Shown piece by piece: positions 3,965-9,416 of a stretch of DNA of 10,031 nt; the stretch's first letter is position 1; each line of letters opens with the position of its first letter. The notes beneath the pieces were generated by a model. The model searched no databases. It was not told the DNA's origin and worked only from the letters and a program-made list of their open reading frames with translations. Origin of the DNA: a virus. Its lineage: Duplodnaviria > Heunggongvirae > Uroviricota > Caudoviricetes. Position numbers and translations under genes: made by a program. The stretch lies in the IMG/VR virus record IMGVR_UViG_2663763232_000016. One strand, written 5' to 3'.

Positions 3965-4486
3965 TTGTGTGATGTTGCCAACAGCCTGACGGCTGAAACC
4001 CTTACGGTGCGAAGCACTTTACCAGAGGTAAACAAATCCGGTGCTGACGCCCCTGATTTGTCCCGTTTTTACAAGGCCCGCTCTCGTGATACCTCGTTGA
4101 TCGAGACTGCTAAAAAAATGCTCGTTCACGGTTACACCCCAGGCAAAACGGCGCTGCTCCTACGCTTGCCGTATGACCTGGTAAAAGGCCTTTACGATAA
4201 CTCGTGGAATCCTCGCTGTCGCAAGATAAGTAATACCAGTCAGTACGCTACTAAGCGAATGGCCCGAATGTACTACGAATCCGGCGCAATGCTGGCAAAA
4301 ATCTGTGCTGACCTTCAACTGCCTCTATTCACTGTGGTAACGCTGCTCAAGCGTGAAGGAATCACTGAAAAAGAAATGGCATCTCGAATGCCTGTTAGTG
4401 ATGATCCGTTGTTCATTGAGTACCGGAAGACTATTTCACGCAAGCAGGCAGCGCCCCAACGCCGATCACCACGACTGCATTATTAA
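3965..4486 (+). CDS. Hypothetical protein with two HTH-like segments, 173 aa; start codon uncertain
   Basis: ORF runs from TTG 3965 to TAA 4484-4486; GGAGGA at 3955-3960 sits only 4 nt upstream. HTH-like stretches: SLIETAKKMLVHGYTPGKTALLLRL and GAMLAKICADLQLPLFTVVTLLKREG. GYTPGKT is not a canonical Walker A motif. Confidence 0.65.
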   Translation: MCDVANSLTAETLTVRSTLPEVNKSGADAPDLSRFYKARSRDTSLIETAKKMLVHGYTPGKTALLLRLPYDLVKGLYDNSWNPRCRKISNTSQYATKRMARMYYESGAMLAKICADLQLPLFTVVTLLKREGITEKEMASRMPVSDDPLFIEYRKTISRKQAAPQRRSPRLHY

Positions 4487-4600
4487 TACCCCAGCCGGGG
4501 AAACTTGACCCTATTTGAATATTTATCCTTTCTGCCGTTAGCGGTAGCTGTTCTCCAATGGCTTCGTGACGGCCTGGACCTCTACAGGAAACATAACAAT

Positions 4601-4933
4601 ATGAATAACATTGAAGCAATCCGCGCCAGTATCCGGGAAGCAATGACCGCAGGAACAGACGAACCGGAAGATCTGAACAAATCCGCTGAAGAAGCATTGG
4701 CGGAGGCGGTGCAGAGTTACCTGTCCGCTTCGACTGCAACAGCCAGCGAGCCAGCCCCAAAAAGTGGTAAAACCATCAAGGAAAAAGGGATCGCTCTGTG
4801 CCACCAAGCCCAAGGTTATAGCGCTAATCTGCGTCCGGTAAGTCTCATGATGAAGGCAAGTCTTGATGAGCTAACACCTGAACAACGCGCCGCGCTTGAG
4901 CGTCTGGGTTACGATATCAATCAGGGGGTGTGA
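4601..4933 (+). CDS. Hypothetical protein, about 110 aa from ATG 4601; the in-frame TTG at 4505 would add 32 hydrophobic residues
   Basis: AGGAAA at 4585-4590 lies 10 nt before ATG 4601. The TGA stop at 4931-4933 overlaps the ATG of the next gene (TGATG). Alternative longer ORF from TTG 4505 as given in the ORF track. Confidence 0.6.
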   Translation: MNNIEAIRASIREAMTAGTDEPEDLNKSAEEALAEAVQSYLSASTATASEPAPKSGKTIKEKGIALCHQAQGYSANLRPVSLMMKASLDELTPEQRAALERLGYDINQGV

Positions 4934-7074
4934 TGTCTGGCACAAATAAGATTGTTACCAGCACCGTTAATGAAATCTCGTGGATCACAGACGATGCCTC
5001 ATATCAAAAAGCCAAAAAGAAGATTATCTCGCTTAAGGCTGCTCATGAGAAACCAGCTAAAGCGCTTGAGAAGGCCCAGAAGCGGACCGTCCAGAGTGAA
5101 GGCAAAGCAGCACTAGCCGCAGCGAAAGCCCAGACAGCGAAGCTACGCCAGGCTGAACAATTGTCAAAACAGCAACAGAAACAAGCTCAGATACAAGCCA
5201 AAATGGAACGGGATGCAGTCTCCCACGCTAATAAAATGACCTCATTACAGGCGCGTCAGTTATCCCAGCAGGAACAGGCCGCACGGCAGAATGCCAGACT
5301 AGCAGCGATATCTGACAAGGTGAGACAGGCGAGTCGCTCCCGTGCAATGACCTACAATCCCAACATGCCTGGAGTTCACTCCGATCCATCTCTGGTGGCA
5401 CGTCAAAATGCAGCGATGAACCGTGGTCACGGCGCTGTTGCTGCTGACATCGCAGCCACCAAAAAGGCGATGGCCTTGGAGGAGAAGCGTCAGCGTGAGA
5501 AAGAGGCAGGCCTTAAGCGCGAGGTGACTTATTACAACAGTTTGCGCCGTAGCGCTCTGACTCTGGCAAACGTGAACGGCGCTGACGTTGCAACCCGGTA
5601 CAAAGCCATCAGTGCAGCAAAAGAGGCACTTAAAGCCCAGAAAGAAGAGCGCTATACGGTTGAAGAGACCCGCTTCGAAATGGCTCGTATCACCACCGAA
5701 TTACGCAAGCAGGCTCGTCTGCAACAGCGTATGACCCGTGAGCAGAAAGCCGCAGGTGTTCGTGCTGGTCGTGTACGCACAGAAAGCCGTGGTGGTAGAG
5801 CTGGTCTTGCAGCTGCTGGTGTTATTGGTGGTGCGTCGTTAGTGGGTAGTATGGGCGTTTCTCGTGTCGGTCAGACCCTCCAGGGAAGCCTTGAGCGCTC
5901 TCGCGATGTGAAAAAACTCCAGCAGTACGGGATCAGCAACCTTGAGTTCGCTGCACTTCAGGATCTCTCGATGAGCCGTGTTGGTTACTCACTGAGTGCT
6001 GACAAGCTGGCTGACCTCAACAAGGACACAACCGAAAAGGCCGGGGAATTGTTAAACACCGGCTCTTTCAAACGTAACAAGAAAACTGGACAGGTGAATT
6101 TCAGCGGCGGTGGCGAGTTCGCAGATATCATCAACAATGTGCTGACCTCCACCAACGGTAACCAGAAGGTAGCACAGAAGGTGATCGGAGAACTGCAAAA
6201 GCTGGATTTTCCGACCTTCATCACTTACCTGAAACAGTTGCAGAAAACTTTCAAATGGACGGACAACCAGACCCGGCACCTGGCTGAGGCTGTGAATGAT
6301 GGTTCGGTCTTCCTCGAAGTGTTCAATGATGAGGGGCAGGGACTTATCCAGCGTATGCATCAACTCTCTTCTGAAGGATGGACCCTATCTGATGCGCAGC
6401 AAGCCAACCTCGATAAACTGGCGGCGTTAGGTGCTGAGTACAACCGAGTGCAAACCAGCCTTGCAGATCATTTCTCAGCCTCGTTTGTTGAAGGCCTGGG
6501 GCAGTACGCTGCCAATACTGAAACTCTACGTCAGAAGATGACTGGACTGATCCCAATTTCCGATGCCCTCGGCGTTGCCCTTGGTGAGCTAACCACCAAC
6601 ATTCTCTCCTTCTCTGGTCGAGTCGGTGAAGAACTTAAGAAAGGCGCGACATTGCCGGATGCGGTGTATGCGAGCGTGGTAGATGAATCTGCAAACGGTG
6701 CTGCCGATTGGATTAAGGAAAAGACAGGCTTTGATCCACGTAGCATCGGTCAGACGCTTAAGCAGATTTACCCGTGGCTGGATAGTTCAGCACCGAGCAA
6801 TATTGGCTCAGGCACGGCGTATAACGATCCAGCGCTAGCGTTGAATGTTCCTAGCCTGAACTATCTGACACCCCAGCAACCGACGTTTACGGTTCCGACA
6901 ATTGACAGCATGACGCTGCGACAGCCGATTCCTGTCAGTGTTACCGGGCAAGCGAACATTAATCAGCAGATGGATGTGTTTGTCCATGACGATAAGATCG
7001 CAGGGCTGGTTGATACCAAGATAAGGGAGAACAACCACGCGCAGAATAACCTCATCCTTGGGATTGCAGACTAA
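4933..7074 (+). CDS. Large protein (about 713 aa) with N-terminal A/K/Q-rich coiled-coil region, central glycine-zipper hydrophobic segment and a C-terminal domain of about 400 aa; function unknown (virion structural, scaffold-like or tape-measure-like are possibilities)
   Basis: ATG 4933 coupled to the upstream stop (TGATG) with AGGGGG at 4923-4928; a GTG at 4930 is the ORF-track start. TAA at 7072-7074. Hydrophobic segment GRAGLAAAGVIGGASLVGSMGV. No P-loop or catalytic motif recognised. Confidence 0.9.
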   Translation: MSGTNKIVTSTVNEISWITDDASYQKAKKKIISLKAAHEKPAKALEKAQKRTVQSEGKAALAAAKAQTAKLRQAEQLSKQQQKQAQIQAKMERDAVSHANKMTSLQARQLSQQEQAARQNARLAAISDKVRQASRSRAMTYNPNMPGVHSDPSLVARQNAAMNRGHGAVAADIAATKKAMALEEKRQREKEAGLKREVTYYNSLRRSALTLANVNGADVATRYKAISAAKEALKAQKEERYTVEETRFEMARITTELRKQARLQQRMTREQKAAGVRAGRVRTESRGGRAGLAAAGVIGGASLVGSMGVSRVGQTLQGSLERSRDVKKLQQYGISNLEFAALQDLSMSRVGYSLSADKLADLNKDTTEKAGELLNTGSFKRNKKTGQVNFSGGGEFADIINNVLTSTNGNQKVAQKVIGELQKLDFPTFITYLKQLQKTFKWTDNQTRHLAEAVNDGSVFLEVFNDEGQGLIQRMHQLSSEGWTLSDAQQANLDKLAALGAEYNRVQTSLADHFSASFVEGLGQYAANTETLRQKMTGLIPISDALGVALGELTTNILSFSGRVGEELKKGATLPDAVYASVVDESANGAADWIKEKTGFDPRSIGQTLKQIYPWLDSSAPSNIGSGTAYNDPALALNVPSLNYLTPQQPTFTVPTIDSMTLRQPIPVSVTGQANINQQMDVFVHDDKIAGLVDTKIRENNHAQNNLILGIAD

Positions 7075-7158
7075 AATCATCGTTCCGTCGAAAATGGCGC
7101 AGCAAATTGGCCCACACGAGAGAGGGCCGTTGAATTCGCCATGTTATTGTTTTTGTTG

Positions 7159-7187
7159 TTGCAAATGATAATCATTCGTGTTAAAAT
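7159..7187 (+). promoter_or_regulatory. Strong sigma70-like promoter TTGCAA-17-TAAAAT with extended -10 TG
   Basis: -35 TTGCAA at 7159-7164, 17-nt spacer, TG at 7179-7180, -10 TAAAAT at 7182-7187, set in an AT-rich stretch; predicted start near 7195. Confidence 0.4.
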
Positions 7188-7243
7188 AATATACAAGGTG
7201 AATTACAACAGCCAAATGTTTTCCCTTCTCCTTAGGAATCAAA

Positions 7244-7270
7244 GTGCGCTTTTCCCAGAGCGCCTTTTCT
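7244..7270 (+). terminator. Weak intrinsic-terminator-like hairpin about 50-75 nt downstream of the 7159-7187 promoter
   Basis: GCGCT (7246-7250) pairs with AGCGC (7259-7263) around an 8-nt loop, followed by CTTTTCT (7264-7270). Short stem, so low confidence. Confidence 0.3.
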
Positions 7271-7532
7271 CATACAGCCAATATTCGCACCCTCTCACGG
7301 TAAGGTTAGGCCATTGCCGCTGGCTGTATCAGAAAAGATTTTCTCCGACCTTGGATCGGGGATTTGCCAAAGCCTTTCATCCTCGGAAGGCCGTCTTGCC
7401 AGACGAAAACTGGCATTGAGTGCGGCAGCGAAGATATGAGGTCTCCCGCTGCTGTGCTCCCTCATTCCTGAAGCGTGACCCGCCGATCATGCTTTCCAAA
7501 TCTCTCCATCAGAAAATACCATCGTGAAGCTA

Positions 7533-7552
7533 TTAGCAACGCATGTTGCTAA
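7533..7552. repeat. 20-bp palindrome TTAGCAAC-GCAT-GTTGCTAA (candidate operator or RNA hairpin)
   Basis: Perfect 8-bp inverted arms with a 4-bp spacer, read directly from the sequence; sits between the promoter at 7159 and the terminators at 7595-7678. Confidence 0.5.
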
Positions 7553-7594
7553 CCCGTAAACGGGTGAATTTCATCATCTCCGATGATCTACCAA

Positions 7595-7629
7595 CCGGGG
7601 CAGGCGTTTTCCTGCCTCCGGCTCTTTTT
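7595..7629 (+). terminator. Rho-independent terminator (about 10-bp stem with one bulge, then CTCTTTTT)
   Basis: CCGGGGCAGG (7595-7604) pairs with CCTGCC-T-CCGG (7611-7621) around loop CGTTTT; T-run at 7625-7629. Confidence 0.5.
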
Positions 7630-7654
7630 CTGTTGGGAATACAAATAAAAGAAT

Positions 7655-7678
7655 GCCGTCCGATGGACGGTATTTTTT
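7655..7678 (+). terminator. Rho-independent terminator (GC-rich stem CCGTCC/GGACGG followed by TATTTTTT)
   Basis: Stem 7656-7661 pairs with 7665-7670 around a 3-nt loop; T-run at 7673-7678; 40 nt upstream of the capsid-pair start. Confidence 0.6.
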
Positions 7679-7735
7679 CAACACAACCCGGCATATTCGC
7701 CGGATTATAAAAATTGCATGGAGATACAACAAAAT

Positions 7736-8080
7736 ATGGCATTCGAACATGAAAGCAAAACCCCACAGGATGTATTGGTTTATACCGATAGCCCGATCTT
7801 TCATAAGCGCACCGTGATCTTTGATCTGGCTGCTGATGTGACTTGTGGTGATGTGATTAACCCGACCACTGGCGCGGCATACGTTGCAGCCGATGCTGAT
7901 AACTGTGCTGTAGCTCTGCAAAATCAAATCGCTGGTGATGCCCGTAGCCTGGTCATTTCAGACCGTGGCTGTGTGTTCAATCCATCTGGTCTGGTTGTAG
8001 CGGCTGCTGCAAAAGATGCTGCTTACGCTGCCCTTGTTAAGCAAGGCAACCGCATTGCTGACGCAAACACTGCAATCTAA
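7736..8080 (+). CDS. Putative head decoration protein (lambda gpD-like size and composition), about 114 aa; alternative start ATG 7718
   Basis: ORF from ATG 7718 to TAA 8078-8080; the second ATG at 7736 has GGAGA at 7720-7724 (11-nt spacing) whereas 7718 has no Shine-Dalgarno. Small Ala/Gly-rich protein directly upstream of a capsid-sized gene; segment TTGAAYVAADADNCA resembles lambda D TDGAAVGILAVAADQ. Not confirmed by search. Confidence 0.7.
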   Translation: MAFEHESKTPQDVLVYTDSPIFHKRTVIFDLAADVTCGDVINPTTGAAYVAADADNCAVALQNQIAGDARSLVISDRGCVFNPSGLVVAAAAKDAAYAALVKQGNRIADANTAI

Positions 8081-8098
8081 TCAAGGAGTGATAACAAT

Positions 8099-9115
8099 AT
8101 GAAATTAAGTGATTTTACTAACCTTTCCGGTCAGTTTGTGAAGCCAAGCGGCGAGGGGTTCCTTCTGTCCAGCCTGGGGATCTTTACCAGCCGTCCAAGT
8201 GATACGCAAATCATCGCGCTCGACACACTGGAAGATGTGCAGCGTGAAGTGACCAAATCTGTTGCCCGTTATGGTTCTGAAATGTCCGGTCTAAACTTCC
8301 CTAAAGCGGCTAACGTGACTGTTCAGGCTCCACTGCATGTCTACAGCTCAACCATCACCAGCCAGGATTGGCAGGGGAAACGTCAGCCGGGAACAAATCG
8401 CCAGATGACCGCTGAAGATGTAGTTGCTAATCATACCCTGAAGCACTACCTGCAAACCCGCCGTGATGTTGAATATGCCATGGCGCAGAGCCTGCTTCAC
8501 AATACTGTAGAGGCGACACACCTTCGTGAAGGTCCTGATCTGAACTGGCAAACCTTCTGGGGTATTAACCAGCCGTCTGCTGTGGTGAAAACTGGCATCA
8601 GTGCCAACGTTATTACTGAGATGCAGAACGCTGTCACGCTGCTGAAGAAAAATCTGGGTGGCTGGTCTTCCAGCATCAAGCAGGTTTATCTGCTAGCGAG
8701 TCCGAGTCTTTTCACCGCCATTCAAGGCAACCCAACCGCATATCAGGCGGCTCTGTTTGGTGCTACGTCCCGTGACATCATTTTCCCTGACACTTTGGGC
8801 GCATATGATCGATACAACATCGGGCGCGTAACTGTAGTTCAGGTTGACGATCCGCTATACGGCATTGCAGATGGTGAAGGCTACATGCTGGCGACGTTCT
8901 CCAATGTTGTTGAAGGCGACCTTTCACCTTATATGACTTACCAGACTCCGGCGAGCCGTCATGCTGACGTTGCTAATGGTCCGGTTTATCCGTCTTACCA
9001 TTACGTTCTGCGTGATAAGTTCATGAATTATGAGGTGGTCAGCGAGCTATCACAAATTCAGATCCCAATGCGTCCAGACTTCGTTTTGAAAATTACGATG
9101 GATGACGCGGCGTAA
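8099..9115 (+). CDS. Putative major capsid protein (lambda gpE-like / HK97-fold class suggested by size and synteny), 338 aa
   Basis: AAGGAG at 8083-8088, 10 nt before ATG 8099; TAA at 9113-9115. Length close to lambda gpE (341 aa), directly downstream of the decoration-like gene, about 50 percent GC. Family call is from context and size, not from detectable identity to lambda E. Confidence 0.85.
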   Translation: MKLSDFTNLSGQFVKPSGEGFLLSSLGIFTSRPSDTQIIALDTLEDVQREVTKSVARYGSEMSGLNFPKAANVTVQAPLHVYSSTITSQDWQGKRQPGTNRQMTAEDVVANHTLKHYLQTRRDVEYAMAQSLLHNTVEATHLREGPDLNWQTFWGINQPSAVVKTGISANVITEMQNAVTLLKKNLGGWSSSIKQVYLLASPSLFTAIQGNPTAYQAALFGATSRDIIFPDTLGAYDRYNIGRVTVVQVDDPLYGIADGEGYMLATFSNVVEGDLSPYMTYQTPASRHADVANGPVYPSYHYVLRDKFMNYEVVSELSQIQIPMRPDFVLKITMDDAA

Positions 9116-9177
9116 GACAGCGTATTTTGGGGGCGCATTGCCCCCGCTGCAGGCGAGCCAAAGGAAAGGAGATACAT

Positions 9178-9390
9178 ATGAAATTAGCTTTGATCGGTAC
9201 TGGCAACATGCCGCTGATGCAGTGGATTCTAGATGGCAAGGGCGATGATGCGATTATCAACATGTCAGCGTTAGCACGCAGGCTTGAGTGTAGTCGTTCC
9301 AGCCTACTTGACCGCATCCATACGCATGGATTCGACAGCGCTATTAGGTACTACCTCAACGAACAGCGACAACGAAAACTGAAAACATGA
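9178..9390 (+). CDS. Small protein with HTH-like segment, 70 aa (the ORF track shows a longer version from 9127)
   Basis: AGGAGA at 9167-9172, 5 nt before ATG 9178; TGA at 9388-9390. Segment INMSALARRLECSRSSLLDRIH looks like a helix-turn-helix. Function unknown. Confidence 0.55.
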   Translation: MKLALIGTGNMPLMQWILDGKGDDAIINMSALARRLECSRSSLLDRIHTHGFDSAIRYYLNEQRQRKLKT

Positions 9391-9391
9391 G

Positions 9392-9416
9392 AGCCGGGTT
9401 AATCCCGGCTTTTTTT
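9392..9416. terminator. Bidirectional rho-independent terminator shared by the capsid transcription unit and the convergent minus-strand gene
   Basis: Perfect 7-bp stem AGCCGGG / CCCGGCT around loop TTAAT, flanked by an A-run upstream and TTTTTTT at 9410-9416. The stop codon of the minus-strand gene lies in the loop. Confidence 0.75.

Follow-up and report, generated by a model that had tools for sequence, protein, structure and literature searches.

RNA elements that give terminator-resistant RNA polymerase are known from mobile elements, with HK022 put, whose RNA contains a minor-groove triplex (PMC9378689), and conAn2, from Gram-positive conjugative plasmids in which terminators limit spurious expression (PMC8191782), as precedents. 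Here, we analyzed a region within the 640 bases directly upstream of the capsid genes in the virus record IMGVR_UViG_2663763232_000016 (10,031 nucleotides; this whole stretch is hereafter the window). The region extends on the plus strand from a promoter at 7159 to a gpD-like gene starting at 7736, carries a weak terminator or pause site (t1) and two intrinsic terminators (t2 and t3), and holds between t1 and t2 a covarying, pseudoknotted RNA core. The best explanation is that the capsid operon of an integrated, satellite-like island here begins with an untranslated leader of ~540 nucleotides (nt). We confirmed that this feature is real, conserved, and noncoding and that its RNA family is absent from Rfam, in an island that is apparently undescribed. 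Regarding its function, we give an even chance to a cis-acting leader that would block the capsid operon at tandem terminators and let transcription through under some condition; such an antitermination leader is plausible but, being read from sequence, unproven.

A sequence-only reading of this DNA had likened the region to lambda pR'/tR'. The analogy with the lambda pR'-qut-6S RNA-tR' system and its Q protein holds for the layout and the read-through logic, namely, a strong promoter and terminators placed ahead of the late genes, with a presumed short, terminated transcript and dependence on read-through. It does not hold beyond that: we found no Q gene in the island, no recognizable Q-binding element, only an ambiguous candidate for a pause element, and no similarity to phage late promoters, and the region harbors three terminators in a 540-nt leader with a conserved pseudoknotted core, while the lambda 6S RNA is not known to need such a core. 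The same reading had offered noncoding RNA as an alternative, and a conserved structured RNA with covariation does lie between the terminators; its pseudoknotted core, the main feature of the region, had been missed.

Like HK022 put (putL and putR), the leader is a structured RNA of an Escherichia coli mobile element, encoded shortly after a promoter and ahead of terminators. put affects RNA polymerase in cis, at the beta' zinc-binding domain, and needs no protein factor. putR is located ~270 nt from its start site and our core ~150 to 265 nt from the inferred one, and the A-rich loop 3 of the leader pseudoknot is of the kind that often forms triplexes such as that of put. However, put measures ~70 nt and consists of two stem-loops, whereas the core measures ~120 to 150 nt with three hairpins and a pseudoknot, and reading putL and putR from the phage genome alongside the core revealed no similarity in sequence or architecture. 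The conAn system (the large RNA conAn2 plus the protein ConAn1; PMC8191782) likewise has an operon of a mobile element that begins with a large RNA of low conservation, which allows terminator read-through, but it belongs to another phylum, another type of element, and another sequence, no ConAn1-like gene adjoins the leader RNA, and the function of our leader is a predicted one. As in the immunity system of satellite P4 (PLE leader and CI RNA; Rfam C4 family RF01695), a constitutive promoter would be followed by premature ends in a structured leader. The P4 leader itself yields a stable regulatory RNA. Unlike our leader, it governs replication genes rather than capsid genes; the leader RNA had no match to C4/CI even at E ≤ 10, and of P4 seqA/B/C-type repeats, we saw in it only weak AUCAGAAAA/UUUUCU complementarities. 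Finally, in contrast to lambda N/nut, the leader has no boxA (no CGCUCUUA-like match with one mismatch or fewer within 7194 to 7735). It does carry small hairpins with 4-nt loops (UAAA/UGAA), for which we know of no N protein.

Folding and covariance analysis across homologous regions, the check proposed together with the lambda analogy, came out in favor of a conserved RNA. The segment from 7194 to 7682 folds at -180.4 kcal/mol, compared to -133.5 ± 6.4 kcal/mol for dinucleotide-shuffled sequences (z = -7.3; 0 of 100 shuffles as stable), and per-sequence folding of 27 distinct cores returned the same core elements every time. The first of these, hairpin Pa (7342 to 7362), pairs UCUCCGA (7342 to 7348) with UCGGGGA (7356 to 7362) around the loop CCUUGGA; homologues harbor differing stems at the same place. 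Hairpin Pc (7372 to 7391) is formed by GCCUUUC (7372 to 7378) and GGAAGGC (7385 to 7391) and displays the loop AUCCUC (consensus YUCCUY), which resembles an anti-Shine-Dalgarno (anti-SD) sequence. We found 11 distinct Pc stems, all fully complementary, with double-sided changes in four of the four pairs counted and a score of 1.00 versus 0.39 in a partner-swap test.

Pc is directly followed by an H-type pseudoknot (7392 to 7415), both stems of which are backed by covariation. Stem S1 (CGUC, 7392 to 7395, with GACG, 7402 to 7405) occurs in three variants (CGUC/GACG, CAUC/GAUG, and UGUC/GACA), and stem S2 (UGCCA, 7397 to 7401, with UGGCA, 7411 to 7415) occurs in 13, including GCUGG/CCAGC, UUGUCA/UGACAA, and AGCCA/UGGCU. 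Loop 3 (AAAAC, 7406 to 7410) is A-rich across homologues (NAAAC). In the window, S2 has a nested alternative with UUGCC at 7364 to 7368, which is used in the minimum free energy (MFE) structure. In three homologues (L004, L005, and L010), however, the loop and 3' strands changed jointly while the upstream UGCC remained unchanged, which favors the pseudoknot over the nested form.

The pseudoknot is followed by the long hairpin Pd (7418 to 7459), in which GAGUGCGGCAGCG (7418 to 7430) and CGCUGCUGUGCUC (7447 to 7459) form 13 bp, with GAGGUCUCC in the apical loop. Its strands occur in 17 distinct pairs, with double-sided changes in all 10 basal pairs and a partner-swap score of 0.86 versus 0.61. 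In the window, Pd contains three G·U pairs. These identify the plus strand as the transcribed one, which excludes a purely DNA-level explanation and rules out a minus-strand RNA. A further hairpin, Pe (7470 to 7495; GAAGCGUGA, 7470 to 7478, with UCAUGCUUU, 7487 to 7495), is present in only a subset of homologues, and a conserved single-stranded tail, CCAAAUCUCUCCAUCAGAAAA (7496 to 7516), represents the most conserved block of all.

MAFFT shifted the register of the Pc stems from one homologue to another, which would have made a seed alignment inconsistent. Covariation was therefore counted on 59-nt ungapped mini-constructs from 23 distinct sequences and by RNAalifold instead of with a covariance model. 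In the mini-constructs, 92.6% of the cells of the core helices were standard pairs, compared to 29 to 41% when the partners were slid by 1 to 3 columns, the former value being inflated because the constructs had been excised using per-sequence folding. Changes on both sides affected 21 of the 23 pairs, and none of 500 shuffles reached the observed values. As a control free of such fitting, RNAalifold run on a plain MAFFT alignment of 11 cores recovered S1 and Pd, with six compensated pairs.

These comparisons draw on homologous loci from E. coli genomes, from GTDB (one genome per species; the contributing genera were Enterobacter, Dryocola, Pseudocitrobacter, Kluyvera, Silvania, and Pantoea), and from viral and metagenome contigs. 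They yielded ~30 distinct homologous leaders, some of them from islands whose capsid proteins are only 24 to 33% identical to those of the window; the island family is carried by E. coli, Klebsiella, Enterobacter, Pantoea, and related genera. The leaders share a common plan and a constant position, always directly upstream of gpD/gpE-like genes. Their 5' part comprises TTGnnA-N17-TGnTAAAAT, a GGUGAU SD-like motif, the box UACUACUGCCAUUGU, and, in ~20 of 33 leaders, a hairpin at the t1 position. The structured core, a nearly invariant AAUCUCUCCAUCAGAAAA, t2, a second terminator, a small hairpin, and GGAGA make up the 3' part. Whole modules have been swapped between these mosaic leaders; L142, for instance, combines an L010-type 5' half with a window-type 3' half. 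L137, a distant relative by its capsid (29% identity), lacks such a leader and has the head module of an ordinary phage.

The promoter consists of TTGCAA (7159 to 7164), a 17-bp spacer, TG (7179 to 7180), and TAAAAT (7182 to 7187), that is, a -35-like hexamer and TGtTAAAAT as in a sigma-70 promoter with an extended -10, and would start transcription at ~7194. A consensus match of 9 of 12 is not above chance, as 13 promoter-like sites were found in the window compared to 10.8 ± 3.4 in shuffled sequences. We consider the promoter real because it is conserved among relatives: TTGnnA-N17-TGnTAAAAT is kept in ~24 of 25 distinct homologous promoters with differing surroundings, even where the capsid proteins are only 24 to 33% identical.

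At the t1 position (7246 to 7273), 59 nt past the -10, GCGCUUU (7246 to 7252) and AGAGCGC (7257 to 7263) enclose the loop UCCC and are followed by CUUUUCUCAU. With a free energy of -8.8 kcal/mol and CUUUUCUC, t1 is marginal as an intrinsic terminator; the hairpin and U-tract that occupy this position in ~20 of the 33 leaders differ in stem sequence. By contrast, the sequences of t2 and t3 are those of intrinsic terminators. t2 (7595 to 7632; -17.8 kcal/mol) is a G+C-rich hairpin of 10 to 11 bp, CCGGGGCAGG-CGUUUU-CCUGCCUCCGG (7595 to 7604 with 7611 to 7621), followed by CUCUUUUUCU, with the U-tract CUCUUUUUCUG at 7622 to 7632. t3 (7653 to 7678; -12.3 kcal/mol) is a 9-bp hairpin, AUGCCGUCC-GAU-GGACGGUAU (7653 to 7661 with 7665 to 7673), followed by UUUUUU (7673 to 7678). 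Terminator-like sites are not enriched in the window either (13 compared to 10.4 ± 3.7 in shuffles), and, as for the promoter, the sequence by itself proves nothing and the case rests on the relatives. Indeed, nearly all of the 33 leaders carry t2 and t3, the former with several stem variants, and at least five unrelated hairpin/U-tract terminators occupy the t3 position. Such nonhomologous terminators at a fixed position point to selection on termination itself and are hard to explain otherwise.

The promoter, the short hairpin with its T-tract, the two stronger terminators, and the placement ahead of the capsid genes are thus all as the sequence-only reading had described them, and its view that no credible open reading frame (ORF) lies between them was upheld. 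We rejected all ORFs of the leader, including that of the window at 7216 to 7419, because their place, frame, and peptide differ among homologous leaders. RefSeq annotates no feature in 7075 to 7735. Moreover, we found no conserved promoter between t3 and the gpD-like start codon.

From these elements, we derive the following model. The strong sigma-70 extended -10 promoter (7159 to 7187) would start an RNA near 7194, which would fold as it emerges into a stem at its 5' end, the hairpin and U-tract of t1, Pa, Pc, the H-type pseudoknot, Pd, and C/U-rich single strands, before polymerase reaches t2 and t3, ~60 to 140 nt ahead of the gpD-like start codon. By default, most transcripts would stop at t1, t2, or t3, giving RNAs of ~75, 435, and 485 nt and leaving the capsid genes silent. 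Capsid expression would then require terminator read-through, most likely by processive antitermination, with the conserved core as the cis element that modifies RNA polymerase or recruits a protein of the helper phage or the island. Because the stretch from t3 to the ATG has no conserved promoter, read-through is the likely route to the capsid genes, and with two or three terminators in series, a single decision of the riboswitch type is less plausible than processive antitermination. The polymerase-modifying or factor-recruiting element would most obviously be the core.

Several observations weigh against this model. Efficient termination, regulated read-through, the mediation by the core, and a triggering factor are steps that we infer from sequence, and the pairing percentages behind the core are inflated as described above. 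No Q, N, or other antiterminator was found among the island proteins with Pfam, PHROGs, and NCBIfam, searches that were uninformative for all of the small proteins. Likewise, the structural model of a 173-amino-acid island protein gave no Q-like match, only nonsignificant ones, mostly of the helix-turn-helix (HTH) type. t1 is located upstream of the core, which therefore cannot act on it, and the core is unlike put or nut in sequence and shape. One E. coli locus (L014, strain SCU-316, 4001 to 4886) has a promoter block that is 92% identical and a different leader of ~800 nt with two terminators but without the pseudoknot core, indicating that the core is not indispensable for the plan. In this locus, the early operon is inverted. 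Lastly, a stable, abundant structured RNA ending at t2/t3 would fit a trans-acting noncoding RNA (ncRNA) gene equally well.

A more specific version of the antitermination model, which we put forward only tentatively, is that enterobacterial satellites encoding capsids have in this core (Pa-Pc-pseudoknot-Pd plus the C/U-rich tail) a cis-acting antiterminator RNA of a new class, which would make E. coli RNA polymerase terminator resistant by itself, once correctly folded, or via a helper-phage product. If so, capsid production would be coupled to helper infection via an RNA sensor and not via a protein activator. To our knowledge, the timing of satellite structural genes to the helper cycle is known for few systems, such as P4 Delta/Ogr and the LtrC/RinA-type activators of SaPIs. 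If the leader is antiterminating, it would join put, EAR, and conAn2, the very few processive antiterminators that are based on RNA, and provide a compact, portable terminator-bypass module. Compensatory mutants of S1, S2, and Pd are directly supplied by natural covariation. Whatever its mode of action, this conserved RNA device, which is outside Rfam, precedes the lambda-like capsid and decoration genes that a family of small islands carries as its own.

The possibility that survives best beside the antitermination leader, although we consider it clearly less probable, is that of one or more stand-alone ncRNA genes producing a ~75-nt RNA to t1 and a structured RNA of ~435 to 485 nt to t2/t3 that act in trans. 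Such genes would be constitutive or Fur-controlled in the lysogen, and the terminators would both end the gene and insulate the capsid operon. The RNAs would act in immunity or helper interference, like the P4 CI RNA, their CUCC/UCUCC loops pairing with ribosome-binding sites of helper or island mRNAs or binding a protein. A strong promoter, tandem terminators, and a very stable conserved fold are what such a gene would show, and the ~75-nt form is shaped like an Hfq-type small RNA, with a C/U-rich stretch, an A/U-rich linker, a terminator hairpin, and a U-tail. In line with this, TCTCC occurs 10.2 times per kb in the leader compared to 1.2 times per kb in the window (~8-fold), while GGAG is absent from the leader. 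CUCC-type, anti-SD-like sequences are displayed by the tail and by the loops of Pc, Pd, and Pf, the latter being a hairpin at 7573 to 7587 (AUCAUC-UCC-GAUGAU) that again has a UCUCC-type loop; ribosome-binding sites, Rho, or a protein are candidate partners of these loops.

Fur control is a possibility raised by a perfect palindrome in the promoter spacer, AATGATAATCATT (7164 to 7176), which corresponds to the central 13 bp of the Fur-box consensus GATAATGATAATCATTATC (13 of 13 matches in this core and 14 of 19 overall; 1 match found compared to 0.01 expected). The palindrome is found in only about one-third of the promoter variants and is absent from about two-thirds, and it is outside the universal leader plan; in the promoters that carry it, it may be an operator for Fur or another dimeric repressor. 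In one relative, the palindrome is changed symmetrically to AATGGTTACCATT, whereas the spacers of most others are unrelated.

The trans-acting RNA is disfavored by the lack of a conserved capsid promoter downstream of t3, which implies that the RNA and the capsid mRNA share their start, and by the leader being found always at one position, directly upstream of the gpD/gpE-like genes. It has no match to C4/CI, RyhB, or any other Rfam family. We also rejected a duplex of the 5' RNA segment with the region around the gpD translation start: complementarities of the type GCCA...UCUCC with GGAGA...UGGC recur, but their duplex energies are no better than those of shuffled sequences (z = -2 to +0.7). 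Since the P4 leader does both, an antiterminating leader and a trans-acting RNA are not mutually exclusive. If the RNA does act in trans, it would be a new large structured ncRNA of mobile elements.

It is unlikely, in our view, that the region is a DNA-level late switch of the lambda pR'/Q type, in which a Q-like protein of the helper would bind in or near the promoter (the variable spacer), engage polymerase at a sigma-dependent promoter-proximal pause, and render it resistant to t1 to t3, with the RNA structure serving secondary ends (stability and Rho protection). The layout fits, with t1 close behind a strong promoter (about +55 to +80) and more terminators before the late genes, and a block from -40 to +35 is 91 to 93% identical among islands that are otherwise very divergent. 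Promoter spacers of homologues fall into discrete types, as expected of different Q specificities. Furthermore, in several homologues, the conserved GGTGAWT (about +4 to +10) can be read as GATNAT, which is -10-like, and GATTAT, GATGAT, or GATATT occurs in several. In the window, however, this candidate pause element reads GAATTA and lacks the critical final T. No Q homologue is encoded among the island proteins, although a helper phage may encode one, and blastn of the promoter against 50,697 phage records found nothing beyond chance. A Q-type switch leaves the covarying pseudoknot and hairpins of ~30 leaders unexplained, and the core points instead to an RNA-based mechanism.

Less probable still is a passive insulator and stabilizer, in which the terminators would stop transcription from the early operon and from a housekeeping-type promoter, the capsid genes would be expressed by constant low leakage, and the structure would shield the RNA from Rho and RNases. 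The composition of the leader agrees with this, as its unpaired positions contain 32% C but only 9.7% G, YC-rich stretches with more C than G at 7220 to 7299 and 7460 to 7539 are rut-like, and heavy structure would limit Rho loading. Nevertheless, the sequence-specific conservation of loops and tail (YUCCUY and AAUCUCUCCAUCAGAAAA) together with a pseudoknot exceeds what stabilization needs, and a promoter placed just to be terminated has no obvious purpose. Finally, a DNA-level site (cos/pac packaging, a replication origin, or operators) with the inverted repeats as protein-binding palindromes is very improbable: satellites do need a packaging site and inverted repeats are many, including the perfect palindromes AATGATAATCATT and TTAGCAAC-N4-GTTGCTAA, but the G·U pairs kept in Pd of the window (three) and others in homologues would turn into A·C mismatches if the opposite strand were read and have no meaning in duplex DNA, stem sequences vary freely yet stay complementary, origin-typical iterons are located elsewhere (1655 to 1745), and the region has no similarity to phage DNA.

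Database searches did not connect the leader to a described RNA. Rfam 15 gave no hit at the gathering threshold over the whole window and no family at E ≤ 10 over 7075 to 7740, the best subthreshold score (E = 0.057) being to a eukaryotic microRNA family. A tRNA/tmRNA scan of the sequence returned nothing, blastn of the leader against the 50,697 phage records found nothing beyond chance, and the core found nothing in 72,556 plasmids. Among the matches listed from an exact-pattern scan of viral contigs with TCTCTCCNTCAGAAA, there were only chance hits.

Apart from the core and the terminators, the leader contains several smaller elements. Its 5' segment (7195 to 7245) opens with an SD-like AAGGUGAAU and further contains the conserved box UACAACAGCCAAAUGU and a stretch rich in C and U, CCCUUCUCCUU, with GGTGAWT and TACWACWGCC as conserved boxes. 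The RNA start (7195 to 7203 and homologous positions) reads as an SD-like AAGGUGAU. In two homologues (L005 and L006), it is followed by a mini-ORF of three codons (AUG UGC AAA UAG/UAA) and in L011 by AUG CCA UAA; the window has no start codon suitably spaced from this motif. A two-hairpin module at 7533 to 7564, UUAGCAAC-GCAU-GUUGCUAA followed by CCCG-UAAA-CGGG, shows compensatory changes and is found at three different positions among homologues (before the core, after the tail, or between the terminators), sometimes twice, so that to judge from these sequences it behaves like a portable RNA module. Its general form is UUAGCAAC-N4-GUUGCUAA followed by CCCG-N4-CGGG, and it is located at ~8298 to 8331 in L002 and at ~9381 to 9414 in L005.

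Two long-range helices appear in the MFE structure and are clear in some homologues, with a marginal result in a crude automated test: the t1 U-tract possibly pairs with 7321 to 7337, and the tail (7506 to 7516) may, on weak support, pair with the t2 U-tract (7626 to 7636). Directly upstream of the ribosome-binding site, the 5' untranslated region forms a hairpin at 7688 to 7703 (CCGGC-AUAUUC-GCCGG), whose covariation and G·U pairs (L011 and L143) place it within a transcript started further upstream. An invariant SD sequence, GGAGA (7720 to 7724), precedes the gpD-like ATG at 7736, which is also the RefSeq start.

The controlled capsid operon (7736 to 9390, plus strand) consists of three genes and is closed by a bidirectional terminator at 9389 to 9413. 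The first (7736 to 8080) encodes a gpD-like decoration protein (Pfam HDPD, E = 5e-4, which is under the curated cutoff), the second (8099 to 9115) encodes a gpE-like major capsid protein (PHROG 29, E = 2.5e-9; 'major capsid protein' in RefSeq), and the last (9178 to 9390) encodes an HTH-like protein of 70 amino acids. In a human gut metagenome contig (L149), an N-terminally cut gpD-like match is preceded by coding-like sequence resembling an insertion-sequence transposase, and the leader seems to have been displaced in this copy.

The chromosomes of E. coli TC24 and AREA_C483 match the window at 100% identity. The window forms the larger part of a ~13-kb island with a tyrosine integrase, inserted at the thiM thiamine pyrophosphate (TPP) riboswitch. 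By its appearance, this island is a phage satellite that produces a capsid shell of its own; the literature searched contained no description of the island family or of the leader RNA. In TC24, the island is flanked by an annotated TPP riboswitch on either side (1776 to 1872 and 15145 to 15241 of that locus), which indicates that the thiM leader is its integration site and that it brings along or restores a riboswitch copy. A related island of strain H8 occupies the same thiM site, and further islands adjoin ygeQ or yagU.

The leader separates the gpD/gpE-like genes from an early operon that encodes a replication-initiator-like HTH protein and a coiled-coil protein of 713 amino acids (4933 to 7074) with weak tape-measure-like PHROG matches. 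Other annotations label the latter 'chemotaxis protein' or 'tape measure protein', which is odd in an island without other tail genes; it could be a scaffold or size-determining protein. At 3965 to 4486 is the gene of a conserved protein of 156 to 173 amino acids that is confined to these islands (42 homologues) and whose annotated TTG start is probably ~20 codons too early. The model of its 173-amino-acid form (predicted local distance difference test score of 65) had no significant match among solved structures (best E = 0.19; mostly HTH-type folds).

Upstream of the early operon, 2.1 kb (360 to 2492) are without a RefSeq gene, and one relative has the same gap. Within this stretch, the string CCGGGGCGGCGCGGGTTGTC at 2116 to 2135 may serve for packaging, as it is similar to GGGCGGCGACCTCGCGGGTT of the lambda cosN region; a blastn search of the phage collection with 1750 to 2480 gave no match. 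At 2318 to 2346, ahead of the early operon, is a promoter-like site with an extended -10, and 23-nt direct repeats (ACCTGCACGATTTTCGTGTACCC, three to five copies) at 1655 to 1745 resemble replication-origin iterons.

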